A DNA stretch of 64,000 nucleotides from Candidatus Electronema sp. JM (GTDB lineage: Bacteria > Desulfobacterota > Desulfobulbia > Desulfobulbales > Desulfobulbaceae), in the NCBI RefSeq assembly GCF_048287415.1, contig NZ_JBLWEN010000001.1, positions 88,790 through 152,789 of the forward strand, read 5' to 3'. Below are positions 22,337 to 64,000 of this stretch, in pieces. A model generated the notes under the pieces. The model made no database searches and was not told the origin of the DNA. It worked only from the letters and a program-made list of their open reading frames with translations. Position numbers and translations under genes: made by a program. Position 1 is the stretch's first letter, and every line of letters starts with the position of its first letter.

Positions 22337-25300
22337 TCACACATCCAGCTCAGAAACCTCCAGCGCGTGGTTCTGGATGAACTCGCGCCGTGGCTCGACC
22401 TTGTCGCCCATCAAGGTGACGAACAAATCATCCGCAGCCTCGGCATCCTCAATCCTGACGCGCAGCAGGGTGCGGTTGGCCGGGTTCATGGTCGTCTCCC
22501 AAAGCTGCTCCGGGTTCATCTCGCCCAAACCTTTATACCGCTGCAAATGACTGCCCCGGAAGGTCTCCTCGCGGACAACACGAATCAGCTCGCGCCAATT
22601 TTTAGCCGGAATTTCCTTCTCCTGACCAGAGGCCGCATTCTTGCAGAGGGTGAAACTGCTGCCGATGTGCTCCCTGATTTCAGGATAGAGATCAAGACCG
22701 AGCCGGTATTCGGGAATCAGCGGAATATGCGGCCCGATGACCGCACGGGTGTGGGCCAAACCTTGAAAGGCCGCCTCCGCCTCAAAGCAACTGGGCCGGG
22801 ACGCGCAAACGCGAATGCCGCTGGTGACGGCATTGATGCTGGCGAGCTTATCCAGCAGCCCGTGCAGGAACGCCTCCTCCTTGAATTGATCCGCAGAATG
22901 GACATCGTTTTCAAGCAGGAAGAGGGTGAGCTGCTCCTGAATGTTCATCCGTTCCAAGAAGGTGCTGATGCGCTCAAACAGGGTGAGCTTCTTCAGCAAA
23001 CTGACCAGTTCCTGCCCGGCCAGCACGCTGCCGTTCTCCAAGCGGACTTGCACAAACTGGGCCGCCTGATCGTAAAGGTGGTTGTTGAGCGCGTCCTCAT
23101 CCAGGAAATATTGCTCCTTCTTGCCCCGGCCCAAGCGATAAAGCGGCGGCTGGCCGATATAAACATAGCCTTGCTCGACCAGCGGCAGCATCTGGCGATA
23201 GAAGAAGGTGAGCAGCAAGGTGCGGATGTGCGCGCCGTCCACGTCCGCGTCGGTCATGATGATGATCTTGTGGTAGCGCAGCTTGCTCGCATCAAACTCC
23301 TCCCGCCCGATGCCGGTGCCCATTGCGGCGATCAATTGCTTGATCTCCTCCGAGTCGAGAATCTTGTCGAAACGTGCCTTCTCCACATTCATGATCTTGC
23401 CGCGCAACGGCAGGATGGCTTGGATGGAGCGGTCGCGGCCTTGCTTGGCACTGTTGTGAACAAACACGCCGCTGGCTAAAGCAAAATTGTGCGTGTTCGG
23501 CACTTCGATGTCGTACACATCAATACGCTCGGTCAGCTTCTCCACTGAGACAACGCGGTGGTTGTAATTGCTCACCGCTTCCAGAGCGCGTTCGGTGTTG
23601 TTATCAAAATACCGCTGGCAGAAGGTGTCAAAGCGCAGCAATGATTTGTCCTTTGTGGCAATGCGGTGCTGGCGGTAGCCTTCAAGATCAACTGCGCCGG
23701 GCCGCAGCTCGTGCCGCTTGAGCACGGCCAAAGTTTTCCGGTAATACGTCTGCTGCAACGCAGCTTGGCGGCGGGCGCGGAACTCTGCTGTCCATTGCTG
23801 CTGAGTTTTCTGACTGCGCCACGCCAGCAGCTCGGCATCGCTCCATTGCTCTTTCGCCTTTCGTGACTGCTCCGCACGGGCTTCCGGGTGCTCTTCAAAA
23901 TAGGAACGCACCCGTTCAGCTTGGGCCAAGCGGTTTTCCTCATCCTGCCAGTAGATTTTCTGCGCCTCATTCAACAAAGCGGCATTTTGCTGGCGATATT
24001 CTGCGTTGCTGCGGTAGAACTCCCGCCATTTGTCGGCCATGAAGGCTTTGTACGCCGCATCGTCCCATTGCACTTGAGCGCGTTCAGAGAGCTGCTGCCG
24101 CAACTGCATCATGCGTTGGCTCATCTTGGTGCGGAATTCAGGACTCTGCCGGACAGCCCGACTCTTTTCGATCACATCGGGCCGACGCAGGGTTCGGTCA
24201 GCGTGCTGCCGATGCAGGCGCAAATGCTCTTCCGCCGGAAGCCGCCGGATGTTGGAGGGATTGTTGTTGCGCTTATTGAAATCAAGGTGATGCCGATGTT
24301 CGCCATCTTCAGCCTGATAACCACCTGCCTTGCAGTTATATTTATCGGCAAGGACATGTGTGAATTTCCAGCGGCTGGCATTTGGTTCCCAAACCATTTC
24401 ATAGCCGTCAATGGTGATGCCCGGTTCATTCATATCCGAGAGCTTGCGATACAGCGGCATCAAAGAAGTGCCGACAGTCAGCCGTTCTGCCGGGCAATAG
24501 CTGCCATCGCGAAGCAGGAAGCGGTGATCCGGGGTGCAGACAATCTGCTCGCCATTGTCCAGCGTCACCTGCACAACTTCCTGCTGCCGCTTAGTCAGGC
24601 GCGGATGCAAAATCCGTTCGAGGCCAATCTTGCCGTCTGCTTGAATGGTGTAGCAGAAATGCTCTTTGCCCTGCTCCTGCTCGGCGATCAGCTCCAAAAA
24701 GCTGAGGGCGCGGCCATCGGCCAAAGCCACTTTGGTCTCGCCAGAAAAGCAGCCGCCCGCTGAATCGCCCTCCACGAGAAACAGCTCGCGCTCTGCCGGA
24801 TTCTTCGACTGGCATTCAGCCAGCTTGCCTGCCATCAGCAGAGAAATGCCGTCCTTCTTGCGTGACAAATCACGCGCCTTCCGCGCCGCTTCTCTGGCCC
24901 GCGCCGCCTCGACCGCCTTGCTGAGTATCTGCCGCGCCACCTGCGGGTTGCGCTCCAAGTAATCGCCAAGCTGCTCGGTGCAGATGGAAGCGACGATGCC
25001 CTTCACCTCGGAGTTGCCCAGCTTGGTCTTGGTCTGACCCTCGAACTGCGGATTCGGCACCCGCACTGAAATGATTGCAGTCAGGCCCTCGCGCACATCA
25101 TCGCCCTCCATTTTCTCCTTCATGTGCTTGGGCACAATGTCATCAGTGGCGTATTTGTTGATGCACTTGGTCAGCGCGGCGCGGAAACCCGCCACATGCG
25201 AGCCGCCTTCGCGGGTGTTGATGTTGTTGACAAAGGAAGCCAGCCGCTCAGTGTAGCTGTCCACATATTGCAGACAGACCTCGACCTGCACCTGCTCCTG

Positions 25301-26110
25301 CTCGCCTTCCAGAAAGATCGGCTGCGGATGAATCGGGGTGCGGTTGCGGTTCAGGTGCTCGACATATTCAACCACGCCGCCTTCATAATGAAACACATCC
25401 TCAGCCCCGCTTTGCTCATCCTTCAGGGTGATGTGAACGCCCCGATTGAGAAAAGCCAGCTCGCGCAGCCGGTTGAGGACGATCTCGTATTTGAACACAA
25501 CCGTCTGGGTGAATATCTCCGGGTCTGGCTTGAAAGTAATCGTGGTGCCGGTGTGCTCGCTGGTGCCAACCACCTCCAGCTCGCTGGTCTTTGCGCCGTA
25601 AGAGAAGGTCTGCCGGTAGAGCTTGCCGTTGCGCCGCACCTCAGCGGTGACATGGGTGGAGAGCGCATTGACCACCGACACGCCCACGCCGTGCAATCCG
25701 CCGGAAACTTTATAGGACGAATGATCGAACTTGCCGCCCGCGTGCAAGGTGGTCAGCACCAGCTCAAGAGCGGTCATGTTTTCCGTCGGATGCTTGTCCA
25801 CCGGAATGCCGCGTCCGTTGTCTTCGACCGAGCAGGAACCGTCCTCCAGCAGGATCACCTTAATCTGGTTGCAGTATCCGGCCAGAGCCTCGTCAATCGA
25901 GTTGTCCACCACCTCGTAAATCAGATGATGCAGCCCTTCTTCCGCCGTGTTGCCGATATACATGGACGGACGCTTGCGCACCGCCTCAAGCCCGTCAAGA
26001 ACCTTGATCTGATCCGCCCCGTAGGACGTGTTCTGCTGTTCGCTCACTTGCTTGCCTTCTCTGAAGAATTTATACGGAAAACGGCATGGTTGCGATGCGG
26101 CGCGCCGCAT
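22337..26110 (-). CDS. gyrB: DNA gyrase subunit B carrying an in-frame intein of about 433 aa. The real start is probably near 26035-26050 at [17 protein letters not shown].
   Basis: GHKL ATPase motifs are present ([38 protein letters not shown]). A TOPRIM domain with EGDSAGG is interrupted by [10 protein letters not shown]...GVFVHN. The sequence then resumes [27 protein letters not shown] and continues to the C-terminus ...[11 protein letters not shown]. Confidence 0.95.
23453..24751 (-). mobile_element. Intein inserted in GyrB TOPRIM, between EGDSAGG and SAKQGRD, with an HNH-type endonuclease module
   Basis: The first intein residue is Cys (block [14 protein letters not shown]). The intein ends VHN followed by Ser(+1). 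The internal HNH-like motif is [31 protein letters not shown]. The extein-only length is about 800 aa, normal for GyrB. Confidence 0.8.
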
Positions 26111-31884: not shown

Positions 31885-32000
31885 AAGCCTGCCCGGCACT
31901 TCTTTCTTGACAAATGCGGCCCGCCGAAATAAAGTCGGTGTTTATGACCTGTTGCGTAACTGCCCTGCGTTGAGGAGCCGCAAAGCATGTGCTTGATGTA

Positions 32001-32022
32001 GGGGCGAAAAATTTTTCGCCCC
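32001..32022. repeat. Copy 1 of a 22-bp perfect-palindrome hairpin element, GGGGCGAAAAATTTTTCGCCCC
   Basis: An exact palindrome is seen with flank tgta...tgctgc. The same element recurs at 60482 and, degenerate and inverted, at about 63749. Confidence 0.85.
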
Positions 32023-32120
32023 TGCTGCTTATGCAAGAGGTCTGCTGACTGAGGATAAGTTTGCAACAAAACTGGCGGGAACATCCTGCCAAACAAGAAC
32101 TGACATCGGGAGGAGCGGAA

Positions 32121-39444: not shown

Positions 39445-39495
39445 CTGATGGCGAAAAAGGGGCGAAGAAAATCGCCCCAGTAGAATCAGCGCAAA

Positions 39496-40212
39496 CTATT
39501 GAGCAGTGCCTTTTCGAGGAATCTTCAGCCGTAGTCTTGGATAAATTAAGTTTGGGTTATCCATCAACTGAGGATGCTTCTCTTTATTTGCCAAAATAAT
39601 TTCTTGAACAGAAACGTGGTGTCGTTCAGCGATCTTTCCTAAACAATCGCCTTCCATTACTTGATAGCAGTCTTTGCCTAAATAGCAATCAACAGTCTCC
39701 TTTAGTTCTGTGATATTTTCTGGATTGGCATAGAATATGTAGACTGGCGCGAAAATCAAAGAAACAGCGTACCATCTTTTTTTACGAAATATCCATCTAA
39801 TGTTTATTGTTTTTTCATAAATTTTTTTTATTTTGCTTTTGCAATTTTCAATAAAAATTATGCCGCCGCTCAAGATGCCATCTATTTTATAGACAAAAAC
39901 AGGCAGATTCGACCTGTATTTCCGTATCAATCTATTTCCATATCCTTCCATGTAAAGAAGGATAAAAAACAATGTAAAAACACAGAATGCTATTATTTTA
40001 AATAAAATCATTAAAATCCAAGGAAGCACCCGGAGCGCAAGCCAAGGAATCAACAACATCAATACGAAAAGAATAACAAACGGGAGTGCAACGGATAGCC
40101 ATTCTGATCTTGATGCAGAAAATAGCTGTTCGGAAATAACTTGGAAGAAAAGAATACCTTTTATAAGGTATTCATCTTGAATTTGGTTTAACAGGCTATT
40201 CAGGCGTTCCAT
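39496..40212 (-). CDS. Membrane protein with a C-terminal LysM domain (last gene of the AT-rich operon)
   Basis: It has 2-3 TM helices (LPFVILFVLMLLIPWLALRVLPWILMILFKIIAFCVFTLFFILL). The C-terminal LysM is CYQVMEGDCLGKIAERHHVSVQEIILANK...NLIYPRLRLKIP. The gene is visibly AT-rich. Its start overlaps the upstream gene by 17 nt. Confidence 0.7.
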   Translation of the reverse strand: MERLNSLLNQIQDEYLIKGILFFQVISEQLFSASRSEWLSVALPFVILFVLMLLIPWLALRVLPWILMILFKIIAFCVFTLFFILLYMEGYGNRLIRKYRSNLPVFVYKIDGILSGGIIFIENCKSKIKKIYEKTINIRWIFRKKRWYAVSLIFAPVYIFYANPENITELKETVDCYLGKDCYQVMEGDCLGKIAERHHVSVQEIILANKEKHPQLMDNPNLIYPRLRLKIPRKGTAQ

Positions 40213-41437
40213 CTCTCCTTATTGATTCAGGGTGTATATTAATATCCGCACTTTCTTCTTGTTGATCCTGTTGTTTTTCCTCGCTGGATGACTTTTCTCC
40301 AATAAGAGCAGCTCCTTGGTCTGACAATCTTCCTACCTTCTGCACAAGTGATTTGGCAATATCCTCAAACCTCCATTCGCCGATCACACCTTTTTCAACG
40401 AAAATTTTTAATATTTCTATACAAGTTGAATTCTCTTCAACACGCATCTTCTCTTCCCTGTCTATTTGCTGTTTGACAAATGAAAGCAATTCTCTGTCGT
40501 TTGGATTTTCTGGATTGCATATTGCAATAATTCCGCGCCAATTACCAATTGACAGGAGCGGCGACAGCAGCGTTTCCCTATTTAGCCTATGATTGAATTC
40601 AATTCGCTGCATTTCAAGCTGCTTCTCAAATTCAATCTGCTTGATTCGCATCTCTGCTTCCATTTTCTTCAATTCAAAATTCATACTTTGTTCCAGCAGG
40701 ATAGTTTGCCTATAAAGCTCAATTTTCCTATCCTTAAATAGCAGCTCCTGTCTCATGGACTCTATCTCCATTTTCTGCTGCATCAGCCGTTTTTCCATTT
40801 CAGCCTTTATGGCATCTACCGAGAATTGCTCCTGAATGATTTTTTCTTGATTTTTTGCATCTATCGTCCCCAGCTTTCCATCAATCAGCCTTTTGCTGAT
40901 GGATTCATGTGGCGACAGCGTAACGAATGGAGGACGGCTTAACTTGAATCCTAAGTCATGAATTTTATTGCCATATATCAATTGACTTTTAAGCTCCTCA
41001 ACAACAGCTCGTTCTGCCTGCGATGCCTGCTCGTTCGCATAGTTTCGACAGATAGGCCGGATTATATCAAGAGCTGACTCTTTTAAAAAATCCCGAATGT
41101 CTCTCCTTCCATTCTGCACAATAAGCAATGGATTATCTATGCAATAAGTCAATGTGACTTCAGCTTGAAAAGGGAGTTCGTCAGCACAAGGAATACTTAC
41201 TGAAAAAAGAATTGAATATTCCGACAGATCAACTTCATAATACACCTTATATGTGCCGATGAGAATGTCGCCAGCTGTCGGCCCGCCATTTTTTCCTGCG
41301 TAAACAACAATTGGCGGACAATTTTCTCCAAGAAAGACATGTGCCTTTCCGAATTTCGGCGATTCAGGCCGTTTGAAGGAAAATTTTTCCAGTTTTCTCT
41401 CAATAACAAGCGGATATTCTTCAGGAGCGAAATCCAT
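40196..41437 (-). CDS. SPFH/band-7 (flotillin-like) domain protein with a long coiled coil and a C-terminal unknown domain
   Basis: The segment AEVTLTYCIDNPLLIVQNGRRDIRDFLKESALDIIRPICRNYANEQASQAERAVVEELKSQLIYGNKIHDLGFKLSRPPFVTLSP matches the SPFH-core consensus pattern. It is followed by an approximately 100-aa heptad-rich E/K/Q coiled coil. No TM segment is present. Confidence 0.5.
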   Translation of the reverse strand: MDFAPEEYPLVIERKLEKFSFKRPESPKFGKAHVFLGENCPPIVVYAGKNGGPTAGDILIGTYKVYYEVDLSEYSILFSVSIPCADELPFQAEVTLTYCIDNPLLIVQNGRRDIRDFLKESALDIIRPICRNYANEQASQAERAVVEELKSQLIYGNKIHDLGFKLSRPPFVTLSPHESISKRLIDGKLGTIDAKNQEKIIQEQFSVDAIKAEMEKRLMQQKMEIESMRQELLFKDRKIELYRQTILLEQSMNFELKKMEAEMRIKQIEFEKQLEMQRIEFNHRLNRETLLSPLLSIGNWRGIIAICNPENPNDRELLSFVKQQIDREEKMRVEENSTCIEILKIFVEKGVIGEWRFEDIAKSLVQKVGRLSDQGAALIGEKSSSEEKQQDQQEESADINIHPESIRRDGTPE

Positions 41438-42929
41438 TTTTTATCTCTGTTAAAATTTTCAAGGAAGTTTCAGATTCATCAGACCATTTTTCTAAGTACG
41501 CGCAAATGCAATTGCGATTTCTTGGAATACGAGAGACATCATATAAAATTCTTGCGAGAGTTTTCCAGAATTTTCCGTGCATGTCAATATGTTTCAGCCA
41601 CTTGAATATTTCAGTAAGAGCAAGTCGTCTGATTGGCTCCGAATCAAAAACTCTTTGCAGCAGACGGACAATGAGTTCTTCCGTCTTTGCTTTCTCTTCC
41701 GCAAGAATAAGAAGGCTCGGATGCTGGGAGCCGTCTTTAATTGACCAAGAAATACGCATCAAATCTGAAAATATAAGCAGAGACAAGCGATGAAGCGAGG
41801 ATTTTTTCTCCTGCCGTCCCCATTGGTTAAGAGATTGCAGAACGAGAACCGACGAACTTGATTGCTTGAAGAGCCATTTGACAGCATAAGCTATATCTTT
41901 AAAGAGTATTCCGTTGCCTGAATTTGCAATATTTCTTAAATCTTCGAGAGCTTGTTCAGGAAAATGCTGACCAAGACAAGAGCAATATGCGAAAATTGCA
42001 GTTTGATTCAATTTGACTGAATTTTTCAGACTACTCCAATAATGAATACTATTTAAAGAAAGTTGAGCAACATCTTCGTTTTCATCATATAAAACAACTG
42101 CAAGCGCAAATCCAACTAATTTTTGGATAGATTGACTTTCTGATTTTGCCCAAGGCAACAATATTTGGTCACGAACCGGTTGAAATTCATACCGTGCCAG
42201 CCGACCCGCTGTTGCTGCTGCTCTCAGTCTGATTTGAGAATTTTCATGTTTCCCTAACTCAAACAACCATTGCAGCATTGCTTTTGCATAAACATCACGT
42301 TCATGCCAGATGTGATGCAAAACAGTTTCTGGAGTTTCTTGGTCATCAAATGCAACTTTCTTGACAGGACTTTTGCCGCATTCGGTAACTTCGCAATCAT
42401 TTTCAAGATGCGCTGATATGTCTTTAAGCCACTGACTCCTTTTCTTTTCCTCTATCTCTTCGTCCAGATTAGAAGTATTTTCTATCTCCGCTTCCTTCCG
42501 CGACTGCAACCGAATGATATTTTGCAAATACTGGCTCGCCTCATCAACTAATCGGTAATTGCAGCCATTAAACACTGACAGTGAAATGATAAAACTGCGC
42601 CTGCTTTTGCAGCTATCAAATATAGATTCGATAGAAGAATCAAACGATTTATCTTTGTCCGCTTGCGTTTTTTGGCCAGAATAATTGCTCTGATCTCCGG
42701 CGATTATCGAGCCAGTATTATTTATATTGCTGTTTGATGCATGAAACCCTCCAGTGTAATTATAATTTTTAATTATTTGAATAATAGTTCTGCTGTTCTC
42801 TGTAAAATCATCTGTTTCGTTCGTATGTATTTTATTGTATTTTATAGATTCTTCAACAGATTTTATACCGTCATCTTCAGAAAGATGATCAATTTTTTCA
42901 AAGAAATTTTCTTCGTCGCCTTGTTCCAT
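41421..42929 (-). CDS. Hypothetical 502-aa protein with a C-terminal HEAT/ARM-like helical repeat region and an acidic N-terminus
   Basis: It is tightly coupled to its neighbours (a 14-nt gap upstream and a 17-nt overlap downstream). It carries no family motif I recognise. The C-terminal half is predicted all-alpha with periodic L/A/W patterns. Confidence 0.45.
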   Translation of the reverse strand: MEQGDEENFFEKIDHLSEDDGIKSVEESIKYNKIHTNETDDFTENSRTIIQIIKNYNYTGGFHASNSNINNTGSIIAGDQSNYSGQKTQADKDKSFDSSIESIFDSCKSRRSFIISLSVFNGCNYRLVDEASQYLQNIIRLQSRKEAEIENTSNLDEEIEEKKRSQWLKDISAHLENDCEVTECGKSPVKKVAFDDQETPETVLHHIWHERDVYAKAMLQWLFELGKHENSQIRLRAAATAGRLARYEFQPVRDQILLPWAKSESQSIQKLVGFALAVVLYDENEDVAQLSLNSIHYWSSLKNSVKLNQTAIFAYCSCLGQHFPEQALEDLRNIANSGNGILFKDIAYAVKWLFKQSSSSVLVLQSLNQWGRQEKKSSLHRLSLLIFSDLMRISWSIKDGSQHPSLLILAEEKAKTEELIVRLLQRVFDSEPIRRLALTEIFKWLKHIDMHGKFWKTLARILYDVSRIPRNRNCICAYLEKWSDESETSLKILTEIKNGFRS

Positions 42930-42942
42930 TTTTGATCTCTCT

Positions 42943-43353
42943 TCATTTTTTATTTATTTGATCCCTGCCTATAAAAGTCCCTTCATTGACAAAGGTGGAA
43001 TTTTTGATAAGCACACCTCCTGTTTGCACAATTCTTTCTACCTTTACCCCATAAAGCCGTGCGATATCTAACGCTAATTCCTGATCTTCTTGGAGCAGCT
43101 TTTTCACTTGAAAGTGCAGAGTCTTCTGCGCATCTTCTTCTGAAGGATCCCGTACCACATCTTCTGCCGCCATTTTCACACCTTCAACTCTTGCAGAAGA
43201 ACGGGAAGAAATTTTTGTCCAGACAGCCTTGGCCGTCTCCCATCCGTCAGAACCTATTTTTTCTAACGCTCCTCCCAGTATCTGTCCCCCACCGCTCAAC
43301 AGATAAGGAAGTACTGGCACTAAAGAAGAAACAACCATTTCAGCAAGTTCCAT
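42943..43353 (-). CDS. Hypothetical 136-aa protein, first gene of the AT-rich operon
   Basis: The ORF has a Gly-rich N-terminus (LLSGGGQILGGALEKIGSDGWE). It is followed within 14 nt by the next gene. No homology is recognised. Confidence 0.4.
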   Translation of the reverse strand: MELAEMVVSSLVPVLPYLLSGGGQILGGALEKIGSDGWETAKAVWTKISSRSSARVEGVKMAAEDVVRDPSEEDAQKTLHFQVKKLLQEDQELALDIARLYGVKVERIVQTGGVLIKNSTFVNEGTFIGRDQINKK

Positions 43354-43534
43354 AGTTTTTTCTCAATGTCTCAAGTTGTTCCAGCAGCCAGAGCAATTCA
43401 GGCTTGACAAGGGCAGGCTGCCGATGAATACTGCGCTGCTCAGTATGTGATCACCTGCAATAAATTTCAAGTATTTTAAAAGGGCTTTTGAGCTGCCTTG
43501 CTGCCTGTCTCGGCGGTGCAACAGCGGAGGCCGT

Positions 43535-43592
43535 CACATCGTTTACATTGAAAAAACAAGGCTACAGGTCACAGCTTGGATTGAGCATTTAC
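43535..43592. promoter_or_regulatory. Conserved ~55-bp boundary element, copy A: ATTGAAAAAACAAGGCTACAGGTCACAGCTTGGATTGAGCATTTAC
   Basis: It is near-identical to 48998..49056 (ATTGAAAAAGCAATGTTATAGATCACAACTTGGATTGAGTGTATTG). Both copies lie 3' of a GC-rich minus-strand gene and 5' of an AT-rich minus-strand cassette. Confidence 0.6.
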
Positions 43593-43653
43593 GTCGAGGA
43601 AGTTTTCAAATTATCTAAAAACTGAAATACTACAGCTTGCATGTCCGGCAGCT

Positions 43654-45081
43654 TTAATACGCCCCCTTGCCGCTGATCATGCAGCCGACCGTTTTGAGGA
43701 TGATCTTCAGATCGCCGACAAGGGAGTGATTGAGGACATACCAGTCATCCAGCTCAATTCGCTCCTGATAATTTTCCGTATCGCTGCGTTTGCTCACCTG
43801 CCACAGCCCGGTGATGCCCGGCTTCATCGAGACATAGCGGCCCGCGCTCGGCCCGCCGCTGCCCTTGTAGTATTCCTCCAGCTCTCTGCCGACGATAGGC
43901 CGTGCCCCGACCACGCTCATTTCGCCTTTCAGGACGTTGATAAACTGGGGGAATTCATCCAAGCTGCTGCGGCGGAGAAAACGGCCCATCCGCGTCACAC
44001 GGGGGTCATGCTTGAGTTTGAAGGTGCTGCGCCATTCCTCGGCCAAGGCAGAATCACGTTCCAGCAGCTCGTGCAGCTTCTTATCTGCGTCCACCACCAT
44101 CGTGCGAAACTTCAGGCATTCAAATTCCCGGCCTGTCGCGGTGATCCGCCGATGGCGGTAGATCACCGGCCCTCTGCTGTCCAATTTAATCAGCAGCATG
44201 ATCAAGAACATCAGCGGCGCGGTCAGGATGAGGATAAGTAGTGAAAAAACGATATCAAAGCTGCGCTTCCAGCTATGATCTGGGTTGAAGCTGAGAACCA
44301 GCATTTCGCCGATGGACTGTATCTCCGCGTGATGTAAACCGAAAATATAGAGATCAGGCACCAGATAGAGCTGTGCGCCGAGGTCGCGGCATTCGCGCAG
44401 GATCCAGAAGATTTTCCGCTCCGCCCGCATCGGCAAGGCGATATACACGTAGTCAATGTCGTTGACCATCAGATATTCGCGCAAATCACGGATTCTGCCG
44501 AGCAAGGGTTTGTTGACCGCAAGATGGCCTTTTTGCTCCAGCTTGTCGTCAAAAAAACCCAGCACTTCGATGCCCGCCCACGGAATGGCCTCGGTCTGCT
44601 GGGCCATCCGCACCCCCAGTTCGCCCGCGCCGATGACCACCGCATGGCGGATGTTTTTGCCCTGCGCCCGGTAATGGCGCAGAAGCTGACGCACTGCCAA
44701 ATGGGAAAGGAAAAGCAGCAGCGGCGTGGTCAATGACCAGACGATGAAGATTGCCCGCGAGTAGCCTTCCGAAACTTTGCAGATGAAGAAATAGAAAAGC
44801 AGGATGCCGACAACTGCCGCCCAGGCCTTCAGGATGACGAAAAATTCCAGATAGAGCTTCCAGCCCCGCCACGAGCGGTAAAGCTGAAAATAATGAAAGC
44901 TGATAAAACTGGCGACAAAAACGACAGCCTCAAGCCAGGTGTAGTATTGGCTCCACGGCACCTGATGCCAATCCACCAGCAAGCTGAGATAGCCGCAGAC
45001 CAGCAGGCAATCGAGAATATGCAGCAGTTTGTAGATGGACGAGGTGCGCTGACGCAGGTTCCACGACAGGGCAGGGGACAT
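43654..45081 (-). CDS. Polyprenyl-phosphate hexose-1-phosphate transferase (WbaP/EpsB-type bacterial sugar transferase)
   Basis: It has N-terminal TM helices, a Rossmann-like segment (VVIGAGELGVRMA), and the C-terminal Bac_transf domain (KRSFDIVFSLLILILTAPLMF...DSRGPVIYRHRRI...DEFPQFINVLKGEMSVVGARP). Confidence 0.85.
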   Translation of the reverse strand: MSPALSWNLRQRTSSIYKLLHILDCLLVCGYLSLLVDWHQVPWSQYYTWLEAVVFVASFISFHYFQLYRSWRGWKLYLEFFVILKAWAAVVGILLFYFFICKVSEGYSRAIFIVWSLTTPLLLFLSHLAVRQLLRHYRAQGKNIRHAVVIGAGELGVRMAQQTEAIPWAGIEVLGFFDDKLEQKGHLAVNKPLLGRIRDLREYLMVNDIDYVYIALPMRAERKIFWILRECRDLGAQLYLVPDLYIFGLHHAEIQSIGEMLVLSFNPDHSWKRSFDIVFSLLILILTAPLMFLIMLLIKLDSRGPVIYRHRRITATGREFECLKFRTMVVDADKKLHELLERDSALAEEWRSTFKLKHDPRVTRMGRFLRRSSLDEFPQFINVLKGEMSVVGARPIVGRELEEYYKGSGGPSAGRYVSMKPGITGLWQVSKRSDTENYQERIELDDWYVLNHSLVGDLKIILKTVGCMISGKGAY

Positions 45082-45084
45082 GGA

Positions 45085-46020
45085 TTAACGTGCCCAGCCT
45101 TGCCAGCCGGGATTCATGCTGAGTGTTTTCGCCCAAGACCGGGGCAGCAGGCGGTGCCGTCTGCCGAGCTGATAGGCGATGAATTTGCCTGCATTGCGGC
45201 AAAACCATTCCGGCAGGAGCTGGTATTTTTTCCGGGCCAACAGCAAGGCCAGCTCGGAACGCACATACTGCCTGCCTGCGCCGCCAGCCCCGCCGAACTG
45301 CCGCAGCAGAGCCTGCTCTTCGGCATGAAGCACGCCAATGTCGAAATACCGCCGCGCTTCCTGCATGATAGAGTAATTATGAGAATGCCAGACAAGGGCC
45401 TCGCTGACGTAGAGCACATCATAGCCGTTTTCAAGCAGTTTGGCCAAGGTCAAGGTGTCTTCGCCAAAAAGAAGCCGCTGCGGGAAATAACCAGCAGTAG
45501 CCAGCGGCTCCCGTCGCCATGCGGCAAAGGAATTGGAGATGAAAATGGTTTTGAAGCCGAATTTGGCTCGATCGTTCCAGCGGCGGCATTGCGCCTGCTC
45601 TGGATAATTGAAACGGCGCAGATGCTCGCTGAACAGCGTGGCATCTTGGGCCGGAAGCTGGCGGCCATAGGTGGCGGCCAGCCTGTCTTTATCGTGAAAA
45701 GGCCGGACTAATCGCTCCAGCGCGTCATCTGCCGCCGGAATTGCGTCTTGGCTCATGCAGATGAGAATTTCGCCGGAGGTCTGCTGGGCAGCCCAAGTGC
45801 GAGTGCCGCCGTGATCAAAATCCTGCTGAGGAATTTCCAGCAGGCGGATGGCCGGATTGGTGGTCTGATGCCGCCGGATGATGCTCAAACTGTTGTCAGT
45901 GGAGCCGGAATCCACCAGCAGAATTTCGTCGGGCAGCAAGGTCTGCCGGGCCAGCGCAGTGAGCAGCTCGTCCAGCCAGTACCCGCCGTTCCAAACAGGA
46001 ATAATGAGCGAGACGGTCAT
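45085..46020 (-). CDS. Family-2 glycosyltransferase
   Basis: Key motifs are VSLIIPVWNGGYWLDELLTALARQT...EILLVDSGSTDNS and DxD-like D..QDA...FGEDTL. Confidence 0.8.
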   Translation of the reverse strand: MTVSLIIPVWNGGYWLDELLTALARQTLLPDEILLVDSGSTDNSLSIIRRHQTTNPAIRLLEIPQQDFDHGGTRTWAAQQTSGEILICMSQDAIPAADDALERLVRPFHDKDRLAATYGRQLPAQDATLFSEHLRRFNYPEQAQCRRWNDRAKFGFKTIFISNSFAAWRREPLATAGYFPQRLLFGEDTLTLAKLLENGYDVLYVSEALVWHSHNYSIMQEARRYFDIGVLHAEEQALLRQFGGAGGAGRQYVRSELALLLARKKYQLLPEWFCRNAGKFIAYQLGRRHRLLPRSWAKTLSMNPGWQGWAR

Positions 46021-46023
46021 GCG

Positions 46024-47334
46024 TCACAGCTCGTTCTGCCACTCAGCCAGCAGTCGCAAGGCCAGCTCGGCCCGCTGGCCGCCTCGGTCTTTTTTGCGCA
46101 CTCGGCCCGACAGCGGCGGGAAGAGGCCGAAGTTGACATTCGAGGGTTGAAAATGGGCCGGATCGGTTTCAGTGAGATGACGGATAAGTGCGCCAAGAGC
46201 AGTGCCTGCGGGCGGCGCGGCCATTGTTTGCCCCTGCGCCAAGCGGGCGGCGTTGATACCTGCCAGCAGACCCATCGCCGTTGACTCCACATAGCCCTCG
46301 ACCCCGGAAAGCTGTCCGGCAAGGAAGAGGCCGGGCCGCTTTTTCATCTGTAAAAATGGATCAAGCAAGACCGGGGCGCAGATGAAGGTGTTGCGGTGAA
46401 TGGAGCCGAGACGGACGAACTCCGCCTGCTCCAAGCCGGGAATAGTGCGGAAAACCCGCTGCTGCTCGGCATAGGTGAGCTTGGTCTGGAAGCCGACGAG
46501 ATTGTACGAAGTGCCGTCGAGGTTCTCGGCCCGCAGCTGGACAACCGCGTGCGGCTCCCTGCCGGTGCGCGGATCAGCCAAGCCGACCGGCTTCATCGGC
46601 CCGAAACGCAGGGTGTCCTTGCCGCGTGCGCACATCACCTCAATCGGCAGGCAGCCCTCAAAATACTTCGGCTCCTCGAACGCCTTCAGCGGCACGGTTT
46701 GGGCATTGCCGAGCAAGTCAATGAAGGCGTTGTACTCCGCCTCATCCATCGGGCAGTTGAGGTAATCGCCCGGCGTGTCGTCATCCCAGCGCGATTTGCG
46801 GTAGATACGCTTCATGTTGAGCGAGTCTGCGGCCACAATCGGGGCGATGGCATCGTAGAAAGCGAGATGCTGTTCTCCGGTCAGAGCGATCAAGCTGGCG
46901 GTCATGGCCTCGGAGGTCAGCGGCCCGGTGGCGAGAATCACCGGCCTGTCCGTCTCCGGCAGGGCTGTGACTTCCTCGCGGATGACGGTGATGCGCGGAT
47001 GCGCGTCCATAACTCTGGTCAGATATTCAGCAAACTGCTGCCGGTCAACCGCCAGTGCTGTGCCTGCCGGAACCGCGCTGGCCTCCGCCGCCCGGATGAC
47101 CAATGAATACAGCCGCCGCATTTCCTCTTTCAGCAGGCCGACCGCCGAATCCGGCGCATTGGAGCGCAGCGAGTTCGAGCAGACTAATTCGCCGAGCAGC
47201 TCGGATTCGTGCGCCGGGCTGAAGCGCGTCGGCTTCATCTCGTATAATTCGACGGAGCAGCCGCGCTGCGCAGCCTGCCAAGCGGCCTCGCAGCCCGCTA
47301 AGCCGCCGCCGATGATTTTAATGGATGCGGTCAT
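46024..47334 (-). CDS. trmFO: Methylenetetrahydrofolate--tRNA-(uracil54-C5)-methyltransferase, FAD-dependent (TrmFO/Gid)
   Basis: The FAD dinucleotide fold is [18 protein letters not shown]. Typical TrmFO internal blocks follow ([29 protein letters not shown]). Confidence 0.88.
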
Positions 47335-47340
47335 GAAAAA

Positions 47341-48318
47341 TCAGTCCTTGCGCCTGCTGATGCTGACGCGTTGCAGCAGGCGGTTCTGGTCTTTGGCACC
47401 GTCATAGGCAATGACAAGCTGCCAGCTGTCCTGCCGCTCCTCAAGCACAGCCAAGCCCTCAGCCTTGGAGTCCTCGTCCGGCGGCGCAATTTCACCAAGC
47501 AGACACAGCCTGCCCATATCCTCCGGCCTGCGGTCTTTGCCCGGCACCGTGTCTTTGCCGTTCCAATGATAAATTTGATACGAATCTGTCCCGTCGCCCA
47601 CCGGCCCGGCCAAGATCAAAAAACCGTCAGCAACAGTGGCGAGATCGCGGATACCCCGCCCGCCGAGCCGGACATACAGCAGCTCGTATTGTTCCGGCTC
47701 CTCCCAACGCAGCCGCAGCACCGGGACGTAATTGTCCCGGAAGACCGGTCCCCGGAAACCGACATGCAGCCAGCCGTCCTTGACAGCAAGGCCTTCAATG
47801 TCAACGCCGTTCTCTTTGCTGGGAATGCCGCAGAAGGCTTTCAAGGCCGGATCATTATAAATGATGCCGCGCAGACTGATTCTGTCCTTCGCCAGCTCCT
47901 TGCCGTCTTCATTCAGCCGCAGGCGGAAGAGCCAGTCCCGGCTGACCTCGTCTTCAATTTTGTCCTGATGAAAAGTCTCCCGGTTTTCCTTCCAGTTGCG
48001 TTCTTTCTTGATCTTCTTCCGTTTGGAGGAGTGCGAGCCGATGACGTAAGCAAGATCGCCTTCAACGCAGATGCCTTCAATATCCAGCTCCTTGCCTTGC
48101 GTTACGAGGATACTGTGCGCCGCCACGCAGCTGCCGTCGCTGTTTATCGTAAGAAACTGAATGCGATTCTCGTCTCCGTCATGGCCTGATGCCTCGTCTG
48201 CGCCGATGATTAAAAAGGAGCGGAACTTTGCGACCGCGCTCACATTCTCAAGGGCCAAAATTTCGCCTGATATGCTTATAAAGCAAGCAGGTGCCATATC
48301 CTCATTTCTCCATAACAT
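47341..48318 (-). CDS. Hypothetical protein of 325 aa
   Basis: This is an ORF with no motif I can name. Its GC level is close to the background. Confidence 0.4.
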   Translation of the reverse strand: MLWRNEDMAPACFISISGEILALENVSAVAKFRSFLIIGADEASGHDGDENRIQFLTINSDGSCVAAHSILVTQGKELDIEGICVEGDLAYVIGSHSSKRKKIKKERNWKENRETFHQDKIEDEVSRDWLFRLRLNEDGKELAKDRISLRGIIYNDPALKAFCGIPSKENGVDIEGLAVKDGWLHVGFRGPVFRDNYVPVLRLRWEEPEQYELLYVRLGGRGIRDLATVADGFLILAGPVGDGTDSYQIYHWNGKDTVPGKDRRPEDMGRLCLLGEIAPPDEDSKAEGLAVLEERQDSWQLVIAYDGAKDQNRLLQRVSISRRKD

Positions 48319-48967
48319 TATATTTCTTAATATGCCTGAAAGCGGTCAACGCATCAAGGATGAAATCAAGCGATCCGGCTGGGCCATTGTAATGATAGAC
48401 ATTCTTCTTAGCCATGACCAATTCTCCGATATGCACTGGTGAAAAATCAGGATCAGCGCATGAAAGCTGGAACCATTCTCCTTCTTTTTTTTGAAACTTC
48501 CCCTGCATGGCTTCGATATCATAATTTGCCACCTGGTCATCTGTCGCCCGCCACATATTGTAGCTGCCATGCCCGACAAGCACGATGCTTTGATATTTTG
48601 GATCAGTGAGAACGTTCATGAAATCCGCTTTGGTAGCCGCAAAAAAATAGTCTATTTTTTCTCCTCTTGCATTAAAATACCACGTCCATGCCGGGTAGCT
48701 TCCCAAAAAGCCGAACGGCGGCGCCCAATAATCATAATCTGAAAAGGCATGTGCGGACAGCAGAATTGCGGCGTTCTTATCTGTTTTTGTAAGTAAATTT
48801 GAAGTGAATGCAATCGCCGCTATTGGTATATAAACTGCGATAAGAATAACAACATATTTTATCAGAGGCTTAATGCTGATAGTTCCAAATTTTTTCTTAA
48901 ATATAACGTGATATAAGCTCATGGGTGTCGTGCATGTTGAAATGATATAGCTTTTTCTTATGATCAA
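48302..48967 (-). CDS. Hypothetical membrane-anchored protein of 221 aa; an AT-rich single-gene cassette
   Basis: It has an N-terminal TM (VVILIAVYIPIAAIAF). The gene is visibly AT-rich. The conserved 55-bp element lies about 40-100 bp upstream on its strand. Confidence 0.4.
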   Translation of the reverse strand: MIIRKSYIISTCTTPMSLYHVIFKKKFGTISIKPLIKYVVILIAVYIPIAAIAFTSNLLTKTDKNAAILLSAHAFSDYDYWAPPFGFLGSYPAWTWYFNARGEKIDYFFAATKADFMNVLTDPKYQSIVLVGHGSYNMWRATDDQVANYDIEAMQGKFQKKEGEWFQLSCADPDFSPVHIGELVMAKKNVYHYNGPAGSLDFILDALTAFRHIKKYNVMEK

Positions 48968-48997
48968 AACTCTCAGCGTATATCCATGTCGTCACCT

Positions 48998-49056
48998 GAC
49001 ATGGCTTTAAATTGAAAAAGCAATGTTATAGATCACAACTTGGATTGAGTGTATTG
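48998..49056. promoter_or_regulatory. Conserved ~55-bp boundary element, copy B
   Basis: See copy A. It overlaps the last approximately 10 codons of the histidine kinase ORF (...KDNTLNPSCDL*). Confidence 0.6.
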
Positions 49057-50525
49057 TCCTTCATTTTTTTCACCGGCAGGCTGATGAAAAACGCCGCGCC
49101 CTGCCCCTGCGCACTCTCAACCGTGATTGCGCCACCGTGCTTGGTGATGATCTCGCGGGTCACAGCCAAACCAAGGCCGCTGCCCTTGCCAACTTCCTTG
49201 GTGGTGTAGAAAGGATCAAAGATTTTCTCCATATCCACTGCCGCGATGCCGGGGCCGTTGTCGCGCACTTCAATACGGAGCAGCCCTTCCTCTGCCGCGA
49301 TGCCTGCTTTGAGCAAAATCTGCCCTGCGCCGTCCAAGGCTTGCGCTGCATTGCGGAGAATATTGATCAGAGCCTGCTGGAGCTGCCGCTTGTCAGCGCA
49401 GAAGAGGCCGTCCTGCGTGATTTCAGTGCGGAACTCAAGCGTGTCCGGGATGTCGCCTTTGACCAATTTGCAGGTCTCGCGGATGAACGCGCCCAGCTCC
49501 AGCTCTTTGGGCCGCACTTCGCGGTCATGGGCGAACTCCAGCAGAGAGCGGATGATGTTCCGCGCCCGGTCTGTTTCCTCGTCTATCTGCGCGGCCATTT
49601 CAAGCAGAAAGTCGCTGTCCGGCAGGTTTGCCTCCTGCAATTCTTCCAGCAGTATCTGCGCCGAGGTGCTGGCGTTGGAAAGCGGGTTGTTCAGCTCATG
49701 CGCCACGCCCGCCACCAAAGTGCCGACCGCCGCCATCTTTTCGCTCTGGACGAGCTGCTTCTCGCGCTTGTCTAAAATCTCCATCATGTGACAAATCGCC
49801 TTGCTCACCGCCTGGATTTCCACCGGATCAGCAGCATCTTCCCAGCAGGTGAAATTGCCTGCGGCGATGCTGTGGGTGTAATCCACAATATGCTGAAGCG
49901 GCTGCACAATCAAATTGCGCATCTGCCTGCCAAGAAGCAGGGCCATGCCAGCCACAGCAGCGACAAGGAGCAGTCCGGCAACTTTCAGGCGGGCCAGCTT
50001 CCGGTCTATCGCCTCGCGGATGTTCCGGTTCATCGCCCCAGACAGATTCACCAGCTCCTTGCCTGCGCTGCGGATGGCCTCCTCATTCAGATGACGGCGA
50101 TTCGTCTGAAAGAAGGCGAATTCCGCATCCATGAGCTGGCGATAGCGGAACAGCTCGTCCTGCAAGCGCACCTTAGCCTTGCGGTCTTCCCCAACCTGCT
50201 TTTCCCGAAGCAGCATGAAGGCATTCTCAATCTGCGCTTGGTTCTCAAGGAACTCCTGCTGCTCGCGGTACAGGAGCCAGTTCTTCTCATAACGGCGGAT
50301 TTCCAGCACGGTGTCAGTCAGGGCGGCGACAGACTCCAAGGTGGAGACGCGCTGGCGGATGTCGGCAAGGCCCACAGCCACCATGAGGGTGATCGTGGCG
50401 GCCAGCAGCACCATCAGGCAGTAGCCAAGCTGGATGCGCCGGACAAGGCTGTTCGGTAGACGGCTGATAATGGATTGCATAATGCAATAGTGCTCTCTGA
50501 AATGCAACAGCCCTTGCAGGCCCAA
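49026..50525 (-). CDS. Sensor histidine kinase (two TM segments, HAMP, HisKA, HATPase_c)
   Basis: The H-box is VAHELNNPLSNASTSAQIL and the G-boxes are DNGPGIAAVDMEKIFDPFYTTK...GSGLGLAV. It is a paralog of the kinase at 58536. Confidence 0.85.
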   Translation of the reverse strand: MGLQGLLHFREHYCIMQSIISRLPNSLVRRIQLGYCLMVLLAATITLMVAVGLADIRQRVSTLESVAALTDTVLEIRRYEKNWLLYREQQEFLENQAQIENAFMLLREKQVGEDRKAKVRLQDELFRYRQLMDAEFAFFQTNRRHLNEEAIRSAGKELVNLSGAMNRNIREAIDRKLARLKVAGLLLVAAVAGMALLLGRQMRNLIVQPLQHIVDYTHSIAAGNFTCWEDAADPVEIQAVSKAICHMMEILDKREKQLVQSEKMAAVGTLVAGVAHELNNPLSNASTSAQILLEELQEANLPDSDFLLEMAAQIDEETDRARNIIRSLLEFAHDREVRPKELELGAFIRETCKLVKGDIPDTLEFRTEITQDGLFCADKRQLQQALINILRNAAQALDGAGQILLKAGIAAEEGLLRIEVRDNGPGIAAVDMEKIFDPFYTTKEVGKGSGLGLAVTREIITKHGGAITVESAQGQGAAFFISLPVKKMKDNTLNPSCDL

Positions 50526-53208: not shown

Positions 53209-53293
53209 TTGCACTATAGTGGAAGCAGCCATTGCACTACAGTGGAAACCTCGGTTGCACCATAGTGCAAACATCGGTTGCACTATAGTGCAA
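53209..53293. promoter_or_regulatory. Array of four 16-bp palindromic sites (TTGCAC-NATA-GTGCAA) at exact 23-bp spacing, about 120 bp upstream of the ROCO start
   Basis: Units start at 53209, 53232, 53255 and 53278. Units 3 and 4 are perfect palindromes. Units 1 and 2 have the half-site variant GTGGAA. Confidence 0.8.
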
Positions 53294-53412
53294 CCGCAAG
53301 CCACAGCCTGCTGGCCGCTTGGCTGCGAGGAAGCTGCAAGTATCCGAGCCATGCTCGAAGGCATTGCAGGGGCACCCTTAGCACAACCACACACCCACGG
53401 AGGAACGAGGCG

Positions 53413-55434
53413 ATGAGCAAAGAAGAAGCCTTGCAGCTAATTAAAGAGGCTGCGGAGACAGGGGCAACGTGGCTTAATCTCTTTAATCAAGGATTGAGTG
53501 AAATACCACCTGAGGTGTTTGCGCTTAAGCAGCTCACCTATCTTGGTCTCACTCATAATCGTCTCGCCTTTCTACCGCCAGAACTGTTTGAGATGAAGCA
53601 GCTCACCCAGCTTGAACTCAGCGACAATTGCCTTATCTCATTACCGCCTGAGGTGTTTACACTCAAACAATTAACCTTGCTTAACCTCATTCGCAACCAC
53701 CTTGTCACCCTACCGCCAGAGATTAATCAACTACCCAAGTTAAAAGATATTTGGTCTTTCGATAACCCCCTCGTCTCTCCTCCTTACGAAATAGCTATCA
53801 AAGGCATCTCAGCCATACGCGAATACTTCGCTGAAATGGAAGGCGAGAGCAAGGAGCTGGCCGAGGTCAAGATCATCCTTGTGGGCGAAGGCGCATCGGG
53901 CAAGACCTCATTAGTCAGGCGGCTGCGCGGGGAGCAGTTCGACCCGCACGAGCCAATGACGCACGGCATCAGCATCAACAAATGGCGGCCCGCAAGCGCA
54001 GGCCAGCTGCCCTGCTGCAATGTCTGGGACTTCGGCGGCCAAGAGATCATGCACGCCACGCACCAGTTTTTCCTTTCCCGCCGCAGCCTGTACGTCCTTG
54101 TCCTCGACAACCGGCGCGACGAGCGGCCCGAATACTGGCTGCGCTACATCGAAACCTTCGGCGGCGATTCGCCGGTCTTAGTGGTGCTCAACAAGCAGGA
54201 CATCAATCCCGGCTTTGATCTCAACCGGCCTTTTCTGCACGAGAAATACCCGTTCATCAAGGGCTTTTGGCCGCTTTCCTGCCACAGCGGACAGGGCATG
54301 GCGGCATTCACGCAAGCCTTGCACGAGGAGTTAGACAAGGTGCCCTTGAGCAAGAACCGCTGACCCGCAACCTGGTTCCGGGCAAAGGAAAAGCTGGAGC
54401 AGCTGCACGAGCCGCGCATCAACTACGAACGCTTCGAGCAAATCTGCCTTGAAGCCGGGGTGAAGGGCGCGACCACGCAGCAGGTCTTGGTGGATTTCCT
54501 CAACGATCTGGGCACGGTCATTCACTTTGATCAATTTGAGCTGAACGATCATCACGTCCTTAATCCGCAATGGGTGACAGAGGCGGTGTACAAGATCATC
54601 AACGCGCCGTCGGTGGCACATGCCAAGGGCCTGCTGCACGTGGATGCGCTGGCGGACATCTTAGCAAAGAAGAAGGACAGCGAGCATCGTTATTATCCCG
54701 CTGATCACCATTACATCATCGAGCTGATGAAGAAGTTCGAGCTGTGCTATCAAGTGGGTGAGAGCGAGGTGCTGATACCGCAGCTTTTGGCCGTGCCTGA
54801 GCCTTCCTTCACCTTTTATTACAGCAATGCCCTGCGTTTTGTTCTCCATTATGAGGACTTCCTGCCGCCGTCTGTCATGCCCCGCTTTATTGTCAATCGG
54901 CATAAAGAGATTCAAGGCGAACTGCGCTGGCGCAGCGGCGTTGTCCTGAAGAATGCGCAGCTTGATGCCAGCGCGGTGGTGCGGGCGGATGACGAGGCCC
55001 GCCGCATTCATATCGCTGTGACCGGCAAGGAGCGCAAAATCTTCCTCGCCCTGATTTGGCTCACTCTGCGGGAAATCAATGCGGGCTTTGAAGGCTTGAA
55101 GGTCAGCGAGCGCGTGCCCATGCCGGATGAGCCGGAACGCAGCGTGGATTACGAGACACTTCTCAGCTATGCGGAACAGGGCTTGGAAAAGATTATCCCC
55201 GAAGGCACGAAAAAGGCATATAGTGTGAAAGAGCTGCTGGAACGGGTGCATTTCGCCAATGAAAGCGAGGGCAGGCAGATGCTGGCTTTGGCTGAGGGTG
55301 AACGGAAAGGCGGAGCAGTGAACAAAACAGGCGCCGCATTGAACACCATGTTCAAGCTGGAGCCTTCAGTTTTTGGCGTGGGAATCAACCTCAATGCGAT
55401 GTTTGACGCTCTGCTGAAATGGCAGAGGAAGTAA
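53413..55434 (+). pseudogene. ROCO-type signalling GTPase (LRR - Roc/Ras-like GTPase - COR) interrupted by a single in-frame TGA at 54361..54363
   Basis: There are LRRs at 53413 onwards. The Roc P-loop is ILVGEGASGKTSL, with DFGGQE and NKQD motifs. After the stop, the same frame continues (PATWFRAKEKLEQLHEPRINYERFEQICLEAG...) into a COR-like approximately 320 aa. The tool ORFs 53278..54363 and 54460..55434 are in the same frame. Confidence 0.8.
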
Positions 55435-60307: not shown

Positions 60308-60481
60308 GTCTGTGGCTGCTGTCGGCGATGGAGTTCTTCCTGGCAGCTTATGCTCTGGCAGAGGACACCATTATGCTTGACAAGAGGACAACGTTATCCT
60401 CTTGCGGAGCATAACATTATGCTCTTTGGCTGCATAGTGCTATGCAGCGGCAGCAGCAAATATGGTCGTGGCAATGGTGTA

Positions 60482-60503
60482 GGGGCGAAAAATTTTTCGC
60501 CCC
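60482..60503. repeat. Copy 2 of the GGGGCGAAAAATTTTTCGCCCC palindrome
   Basis: It is identical to copy 1 and has similar flanks (gtgta...tgcagc). Confidence 0.85.
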
Positions 60504-60542
60504 TGCAGCATTGCGGAAAACATGCAAAGGAGGAACGAGGCG

Positions 60543-60674
60543 ATGAACAAAGAAGAAGCCTTGCGGCGGATTAAACACGTGGAGGAGACAGGAGCAACGA
60601 GGCTTGATCTGAGCTTTCAAAGATTGACTGAACTGCCGCCTGAACTCTTTCAAATAAAAAATGAACCAACTTGA
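60543..60674 (+). pseudogene. 43-codon stub of a ROCO/LRR-family N-terminus with a conserved RBS region
   Basis: MNKEEALRRIKHVEETGATRLDLSFQRLTELPPELFQ... parallels MSKEEALQLIKEAAETGATWLNLFNQGLSEIPPEVFA... at 53413. The upstream GGAGGAACGAGGCGATGA is shared with the ROCO gene. Confidence 0.6.
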
Positions 60675-63717: not shown

Positions 63718-63748
63718 AATTGTCCCCTGCGTTGAGTGGCTACGTGAT

Positions 63749-63776
63749 GCAGCAGGGGCGAAAAATTTTTCACACC
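63749..63776. repeat. Degenerate, inverted copy 3 of the palindromic hairpin element (GCAGCAGGGGCGAAAAATTTTTCACACC)
   Basis: Its reverse complement matches ggtgt-GAAAAATTTTTCGCCCC-tgctgc of copies 1 and 2, with 6 nt of the left arm deleted. Confidence 0.6.
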
Positions 63777-64000
63777 TTATATTAGAGCCTGTTACTGTTA
63801 ACACTAGACCTCTTGCGTAAGTCACAACTTATTGATAAAAGAAGCTATGACCTGTTAGCATTATTTGATTGCAATCACGATCAAGGCAAAAACGACAAAC
63901 CCGATGAACATGACATCCAGTTTGTCAAACCGGGTGAAGATGCGGCGGAATCCCTTCAGCCTTCTGAACAGCCGCCCGACTTCATTCCGTTTTTCATACA

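Follow-up and report, generated by a model that had tools for sequence, protein, structure and literature searches.

We found that a short low-GC sequence, hereafter the core element, occurs twice in a 64,000-nt stretch (the window, whose positions serve as coordinates throughout unless a contig is named) of the genome of Candidatus Electronema sp. JM, a cable bacterium of the Desulfobulbaceae. Comparison with related contigs showed each copy to lie in a strain-specific joining segment at a break in synteny, present in JM-type strains only. We take the element to be left over from mobile or recombinogenic DNA, as a remnant or an end piece that stayed at recombination joints in low copy number and in this lineage only, and give this reading a probability of about 0.45; the part that the element would have had in making the joints, and the kind of its parent, we infer. 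Cable-bacterium genomes are mosaic and rich in insertion sequences, and there is no pure culture. If the element marks recombination joints, it would offer a handle on the reshuffling of core and accessory genes in these genomes; among the accessory genes here are a caspase-like protease family and a STAND NTPase-related module. On present evidence the element is a two-copy, lineage-specific repeat and a marker for strain comparison, not a new mechanism.

Two copies at two synteny breaks

Copy A (43543-43590, GC 0.38) and copy B (49007-49054, GC 0.27) were delimited by ungapped and local alignment to each other; the minus strand of copy B supplies the last 7 codons and the stop of a histidine kinase open reading frame (ORF). 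The initial annotation of this DNA quoted the copies as ATTGAAAAAACAAGG...CATTTAC and ATTGAAAAAGCAATG...GTATTG, and both strings exist on the plus strand, at 43548-43593 and 49011-49056, slightly shifted from the ranges given there. It put the likeness at about 80% identity over about 55 bp; the identity holds (36/45 in ungapped comparison of 43543-43587 with 49007-49051), while the conserved length comes down to 45-50 bp. Aligned locally, the copies score 55 at best, with 42 matches in 51 columns, whereas 1000 shuffles average 16.8 (standard deviation 2.1, maximum 27), and the next best ungapped match to either copy in the whole 64 kb is 26/45. The repeat pair is real and far above background. 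A chance resemblance between two AT-rich intergenic stretches draws what credit it has from there being only two independent copies known; it is virtually excluded by these statistics, both copies moreover falling in joining segments that form about 0.4% of the window, and we find it scarcely conceivable.

Outside the element the two intergenic stretches have no significant similarity in any orientation, permuted and inverted arrangements included. The GC of the element (0.27-0.38) is low, as in the accessory genes, against 0.55-0.63 for the flanking core genes. It is not a generic abundant repeat: the 64 kb contain two copies, some 75 kb of related cable-bacterium loci contain none, and the genome, viral, plasmid and phage collections described below gave no true match.

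Along the minus strand the order is kinase, copy B, an 8-bp hairpin, a gene for a 206-amino acid (aa) protein, DUF3616, TrmFO, a family-2 glycosyltransferase, a sugar transferase, copy A and the four-gene cassette A. The two copies are equivalently placed, as first proposed, each 3′ of a GC-rich minus-strand gene and 5′ of one or more low-GC minus-strand genes, and the element sits at two of the three block joints between 39.5 and 51.5 kb. Close relatives of each flanking block were compared in seven related contigs (labels L132-L143 are used for related contigs), and from the limits of homology in these it follows that each copy belongs to a short joining segment that is part of neither neighboring block.

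At junction B the histidine kinase gene (49026-50525, minus strand; Pfam HisKA and HATPase_c) has a chimeric 3′ end. Contig L138 and the window share 88.7% identity between 51481 and 49071-49074 and are unrelated beyond; the junction is thus mapped to the base, and the element begins some 20-22 nt past the L138 breakpoint. The L138 kinase ends ...ISLPLRAA with a response regulator gene next to it, and two more kinase orthologues (93-95% identical) likewise end LRAA. After ISLP the JM kinase instead reads VKKMKDNTLNPSCDL*, its last 15 codons, which derive from the joining segment, so that the early observation of copy B ending the kinase ORF was correct and can be extended: these codons come from DNA that the kinase orthologues of other strains lack. 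The JM and P0130 kinases both end ...ISLPVKKMKDN(T/I)LNPSCDL. The native last four codons have been lost in JM, and no orthologue of the response regulator is present in the 64-kb window. With both these codons and the partner gene lost from the kinase locus, junction B goes beyond a simple insertion, and at least one further recombination or deletion would have occurred after or with the arrival of the element.

Joining segment B (148 nt, 48926-49073), with its limits set by homology to L138 and L143, is found only in JM and in contig L137; the latter comes from another metagenome, and its JM-type order of kinase, copy B and 206-aa gene represents a second population. Copy B of L137 matches that of JM at 42/45 bases. 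JM and L137 agree at 91% of positions in the joining segment as a whole, at 93% in the element and at 82-87% of third codon positions in the flanking genes, a mild sign that the segment may be under constraint, though another intergenic stretch, upstream of the kinase, is similar at 94.5%. The 8-bp hairpin adjoining copy B (48984-49004, -10 kcal/mol) has no equivalent at copy A, and one of its stem pairs is broken in L137. Beyond it lies cassette B, the single gene for the 206-aa protein (48305-48922, minus strand, GC 0.41), whose ORF spans 48302-48967 with a probable start at 48922. L143 has a KptA/Tpt1-like gene, a 32-nt gap and then a 206/207-aa gene with DUF3616 (93% protein identity), without the element, and it is homologous to JM only from the ATG of the 206-aa gene onward, at about 48922-48925. 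Ahead of DUF3616-TrmFO, L132 and L133 have SecDF directly, and L134 has a restriction-modification pair.

At junction A the core block upstream of copy A is that of the sugar transferase gene (43654-45081, minus strand; Pfam Bac_transf and CoA_binding_3). Joining segment A (123 nt, 43535-43657) has no counterpart in other contexts of either neighboring block. In L135 the sugar transferase block is followed by a collagen-like gene, without the element, and clear homology to JM ends at the stop codon, with its limit mapped to 43658; weak similarity may extend about 45 nt beyond it, a score that 11/300 shuffles reached. On the other side, cassette A (39496-43353, minus strand) consists of four low-GC genes (GC 0.35-0.44) for proteins of 136 aa, 502 aa, 413 aa (SPFH) and 238 aa (LysM). 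It is 93.6% identical to L136 over 39679-43528, and the homology ends at 43528-43534, 9-15 nt from the element; L136 has a divergent PIN gene in place of the element, and its DNA beyond the cassette boundary shows no significant similarity to the element.

The segment common to L136 includes a predicted sigma-70-like promoter of cassette A (43470-43442, minus strand, TTGAAA-17-CATACT), and this bears on the suggestion, made in the initial annotation, that the repeat is a promoter or operator; as such it would be shared by both low-GC modules and co-regulate them. The element does lie upstream of both in the same orientation, co-regulation would be conceivable for two modules that each resemble conflict or defence genes, and there is a little dyad symmetry in the element, with one pair of symmetric changes. 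However, a consensus scan found no sigma-70-like hexamer pair in either copy on either strand, copy A is about 70 nt upstream of the cassette's own predicted promoter, and L136 keeps both cassette and promoter without the element. Elsewhere, relatives of the 206-aa gene follow close upon other genes, again without it, and 45 conserved bases go far beyond the needs of an operator. A regulatory role of this kind is quite improbable. Sigma-54, CRP-like and ops/JUMPstart readings were also tried and were rejected for misfits of spacing or strand, as judged by eye against their consensus sequences.

Wherever one of the four flanking blocks occurs in another arrangement, the element is absent. It is missing from L136, L143, four loci with more distant relatives of the 206-aa gene (L139-L142) and three TrmFO loci of close relatives; because the gene blocks thus have alternative neighbors without the element, its link to strain-variable boundaries holds. 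The expectation that junction DNA would vary among closely related strains was borne out by the comparisons with L135, L136, L138 and L143. The idea that the element moves with the cassettes was not, their relatives in L136, L143 and L139-L142 being without it. A third low-GC gene, for a family-2 glycosyltransferase (17714-18586, minus strand, GC 0.37), adjoins a PD-(D/E)XK ‘transposase’ family gene (18579-19523, minus strand); no copy of the element occurs at 17714-19523, so the element does not mark every low-GC insertion.

Separately, the surroundings of trmFO differ in every related genome examined, with breaks at gene boundaries (L132 9033-11314, L134 7901-11332, L143, and window 46024-48318). 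The neighbors are, in turn, SecDF-DUF3616, a NotI-like restriction-modification pair, a KptA-like gene with a caspase-like gene, and the kinase with a caspase-like gene. On these gene orders the trmFO neighborhood looks like a local hot spot of gene exchange in Electronema.

Origin of the element

As a remnant of mobile or recombinogenic DNA, the element would descend from one end of an insertion element, from a miniature element derived from such a sequence, or from an island edge. The parent DNA would have entered the chromosome at two places, the kinase gene's 3′ end and a position downstream of the sugar transferase gene. The insertion, or later recombination or deletion at these sites, would have brought the low-GC modules beside the core genes.

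Several observations weigh against this origin. Neither copy is linked to a transposase, an integrase or any other recombinase. The window's 52 ORFs of 100 aa or more, gyrA, gyrB and many signalling genes among them, include none with a domain of a tyrosine or serine recombinase, an integrase, a resolvase or an IntI-type enzyme; there are just two mobile-element genes in the window, the PD-(D/E)XK ‘transposase’ family gene at 18579-19523 and, at the right edge, an IS5-family transposase of which the C-terminal end is present. The sole candidate for terminal inverted repeats is TGAAAA...TTTTCA (6 nt), and conservation extends past it. We found no target-site duplication flanking the copies, no stable hairpin in the element, and no second copy at the distal module ends (39445-39500 and 48298-48305). 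Pattern scans of genomes and, among the matches listed, of metagenomes, described below, yielded no parent element. Finally, two independent copies do not separate an active role of the element from passive hitch-hiking, and it may have come along as a passenger.

The IS5-family insertion sequence end (63784-64000, minus strand) encodes a transposase C-terminus, ...RFDKLDVMF...IAIK*, which we take to be of this family by eye from its translation, in comparison with known IS5 transposases; its stop codon is followed by an imperfect palindrome, AAGTCACAACTT-N11-AAGCTATGACCT. Copy A aligns to part of this end, 63842-63875, and scores 30, where the highest of 412 background tiles reaches 22 (window-wide p about 0.05). 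The match of copy A is marginal and copy B has no similarity to that segment, which again counts against an origin in mobile DNA; as a lead to the parent element, the IS5-family end may be considered marginal. Within the same end lies a third, weaker match reported at the outset, GTCACAACTT. The string is present, at 63821-63830, but a profile built from three copies of the element did not detect the site even at E<100, and its relationship to the element is not established: it is a chance match or, at best, an unproven lead.

Copies A and B were also considered as attL and attR of the 5.4-kb segment between them. This was rejected, the DNA beyond copy A not continuing the interrupted kinase/response-regulator locus.

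We searched large collections for further copies. The exact pattern AGNTCACANCTTGGATTGAG, run against 185,579 species-representative genomes (596 Gb), gave 2 matches, both in Bacteroidota and without similarity beyond the pattern. A second pattern, TCACARCTTGGATTGAG, was scanned against metagenome contigs and proved too short for that collection, giving at least 120 matches; among the matches listed all are chance, each without the upstream half of the element. Viral contigs, PLSDB and INPHARED held no true match to the element.

The differences among the copies allow for a coding origin. Here the element would be a protein-coding stub without a role, either the last 7 codons and stop (LNPSCDL*) of a gene once upstream of both modules or, on the other strand, the first 14 or so codons (LKKQ[G/C]YRSQLGLS) of a divergent gene. 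Counting from the C of CTCAAT, copies A and B differ at 12, 18, 21, 24, 26, 30 and 40, and copy B differs from that of L137 at 6 and 41; six of these nine differences (6, 12, 18, 21, 24 and 30) are at third positions and synonymous in both candidate frames. The stop codon is kept, as TAG or TAA, and the LNPSCDL frame is the actual tail of the kinase ORF in copy B. The element may then once have been the end or start of a gene, but the evidence is thin. The codon-phase signal, noticed post hoc, is weak (p about 0.04 in one frame, about 0.13 over three frames). The two copies share their end points on either side, as independent truncations would not be expected to produce; in copy A the frame has a stop one codon upstream of the element with only an ATG between, making a closed mini-ORF; and neither possible start has a ribosome-binding site. 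The core peptides from both candidate frames, searched against 5.8 billion proteins, found nothing at E<=10, a short query with little power. We consider a coding stub unlikely, though not negligible.

Recombination-site and RNA readings

The initial annotation saw in the repeat a possible recombination site, att-like, used repeatedly for cassette insertion. The strain-variable boundary that this implied is real; the att-like mechanism did not stand up, and a possible att-like or recombination role is suggested by position only. In such a scheme the element would be a site analogous to those of integrons or Xer systems, with its recombinase encoded elsewhere in the genome. It lies at a boundary of core and variable module in two of two cases and in the same orientation, and module content at its sites differs among strains. 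The L135 DNA downstream of the sugar transferase bears a faint likeness to part of the element (TGAATTGCAGCTGTGA), of the strength reached by 11/300 shuffles. Against this, both strands of 43520-43660 and 48920-49080 are free of GTTRRRY and RYYYAAC, perfect inverted repeats around the element reach 4-5 bp at most, and single-strand folds of 81-nt segments from both strands have z-scores of -0.35 to +1.44 relative to shuffles. As the window also lacks an integrase and the distal module ends lack a copy, the integron-like form of the proposal fails. Neither module has a partner att site at its other end; the mapped breakpoints miss the element, by 22 nt on the upstream side in B and by 9-15 nt on the downstream side in A; no clear attB-like version exists at the insert-free sites of L138 and L135; a rearrangement and not a simple insertion is seen at junction B, the response regulator gene being gone from the window; and the copies are only 80-84% alike. 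We regard an att-like cassette-insertion site as improbable.

A related proposal, distinctly improbable, makes the element the recognition site of an undescribed, hairpin-free cassette-capture system with an unlinked recombinase. Low-GC conflict modules would be inserted at the 3′ ends of core genes, and the site would give the disrupted gene a new stop codon.

The element could also act as an intrinsic terminator or insulator, ending transcription of the core genes before the foreign module. Its minus strand can be drawn as a short hairpin followed by a U run, CAAGCUGU-GACCU-GUAGC(C)UUG and then UUUUUU (CUUUUU in copy B), and a direct reading shows a C-G to U-A change on both sides of the stem. 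Yet this hairpin has only -2 to -3 kcal/mol, against -14 to -22 kcal/mol for GC-rich palindromes after other genes of the window, and it lies outside the minimum-energy fold. The element is no more structured than shuffled sequence by the above z-scores (-0.35 to +1.4), and a terminator scan did not report it. We think this function highly unlikely.

A structured-RNA or hairpin reading was rejected as well, the hand-drawn hairpin (about -2 kcal/mol) being missing from minimum-energy folds and without a match in Rfam. At gathering thresholds Rfam gave no match in the whole window, and in E-value mode only 2 eukaryotic chance matches at E of about 3; a search for tRNA and tmRNA found none.

The GC-rich palindrome, AGGGGCGAAAAATTTTTCGCCCCT, is REP-like (repetitive extragenic palindromic) and unlike the core element. 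It has 3-4 copies after gene ends (31994-32028, 60475-60509, 63748-63782 and 39460-39479), folding at -14 to -22 kcal/mol, and is probably a native two-way terminator or REP-like repeat of the JM genome. The insertion sequence truncates the copy at 63748, at about 63770-63784.

Accessory modules and comparison with known systems

The 206-aa protein of cassette B has 232 homologues and no Pfam family. It has an N-terminal membrane helix, and its AlphaFold2 model (pLDDT 85) has a caspase-like fold, with caspase-3/-7 and SAVED-CHAT protease as top Foldseek matches; His118 and Cys155 are invariant in 52 sequences of the family. We thus predict a membrane-anchored protein of caspase-like fold. Genes of the family (also at L139 493-1782 and L141 4523-5811) are below the host genome in GC in several genomes, occur as tandem paralogues, and in L139 adjoin a Tae4 amidase gene.

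The 502-aa protein of cassette A has 813 relatives, most of 720-760 aa. All five of the relatives of that length that were scanned against Pfam have an N-terminal nSTAND3 NTPase domain, and the JM protein matches only the C-terminal part of these nSTAND3 relatives. Judged by its gene content (136-aa, 502-aa, SPFH and LysM proteins), cassette A looks like a conflict or defence module. PADLOC and NCBIfam searches with the cassette proteins found only LysM and one weak match to a BovA region; cassette A as a module goes unrecognised by PADLOC, and a search for viral relatives of the cassette proteins gave none.

Three other features of the window were noted. The gyrB gene (22337-26110, minus strand, 1257 codons) carries an intein, with Pfam Intein_splicing between the GyrB and Toprim domains. 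LRR-Roc-COR genes lie at 53278-55434. A 122-nt direct repeat has two copies that are 79% identical (53399-53520 and 60529-60650), one inside the LRR-Roc gene and the other upstream of a gene for a PEP-utilising enzyme.

The core element fails every testable defining feature of attC sites, inverted-repeat miniature elements, promoters, terminators and Rfam families. With integron attC and attI sites it shares the placement of a repeat at the upstream edge of variable, often promoterless, accessory units beside conserved DNA. Unlike attC, it has no R''/R' motifs or imperfect palindrome and is shorter than any attC; there is no IntI in the window and no array with one site per cassette, and cassette A comprises four genes with their own promoter. 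The pdif (XerC/D) modules of Acinetobacter plasmids are likewise interchangeable gene modules bounded by short sites, but by inspection the element has no 11-6-11 dyad, its copies are not at both module ends and its setting is chromosomal. REP and BIME (bacterial interspersed mosaic element) intergenic repeats share with it a placement just past gene 3′ ends, whereas the element is neither palindromic nor abundant.

The homology stubs of CDI (contact-dependent inhibition) and Rhs polymorphic-toxin loci are also short, coding-like pieces upstream of variable low-GC modules of conflict type, and they too show differences in codon phase. The core element differs from them by ending in a stop, without in-frame fusion to the module; its parent gene was not found, and neither module is a toxin-immunity pair.

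Solo insertion-sequence ends and relics of miniature elements share more with it: a short, low-GC, non-coding repeat, in neither flanking block, at a synteny break, in a region that also holds an IS5-family element and a PD-(D/E)XK ‘transposase’ gene. It differs from these in having no terminal inverted repeats, no target-site duplication and no identifiable parent, in its low copy number with only 45-50 bp conserved, and in a resemblance to the IS5 end that is marginal and confined to copy A. Assignable to no named family, the core element is closest, in its position, to the solo ends or relics of mobile DNA found at rearrangement joints.

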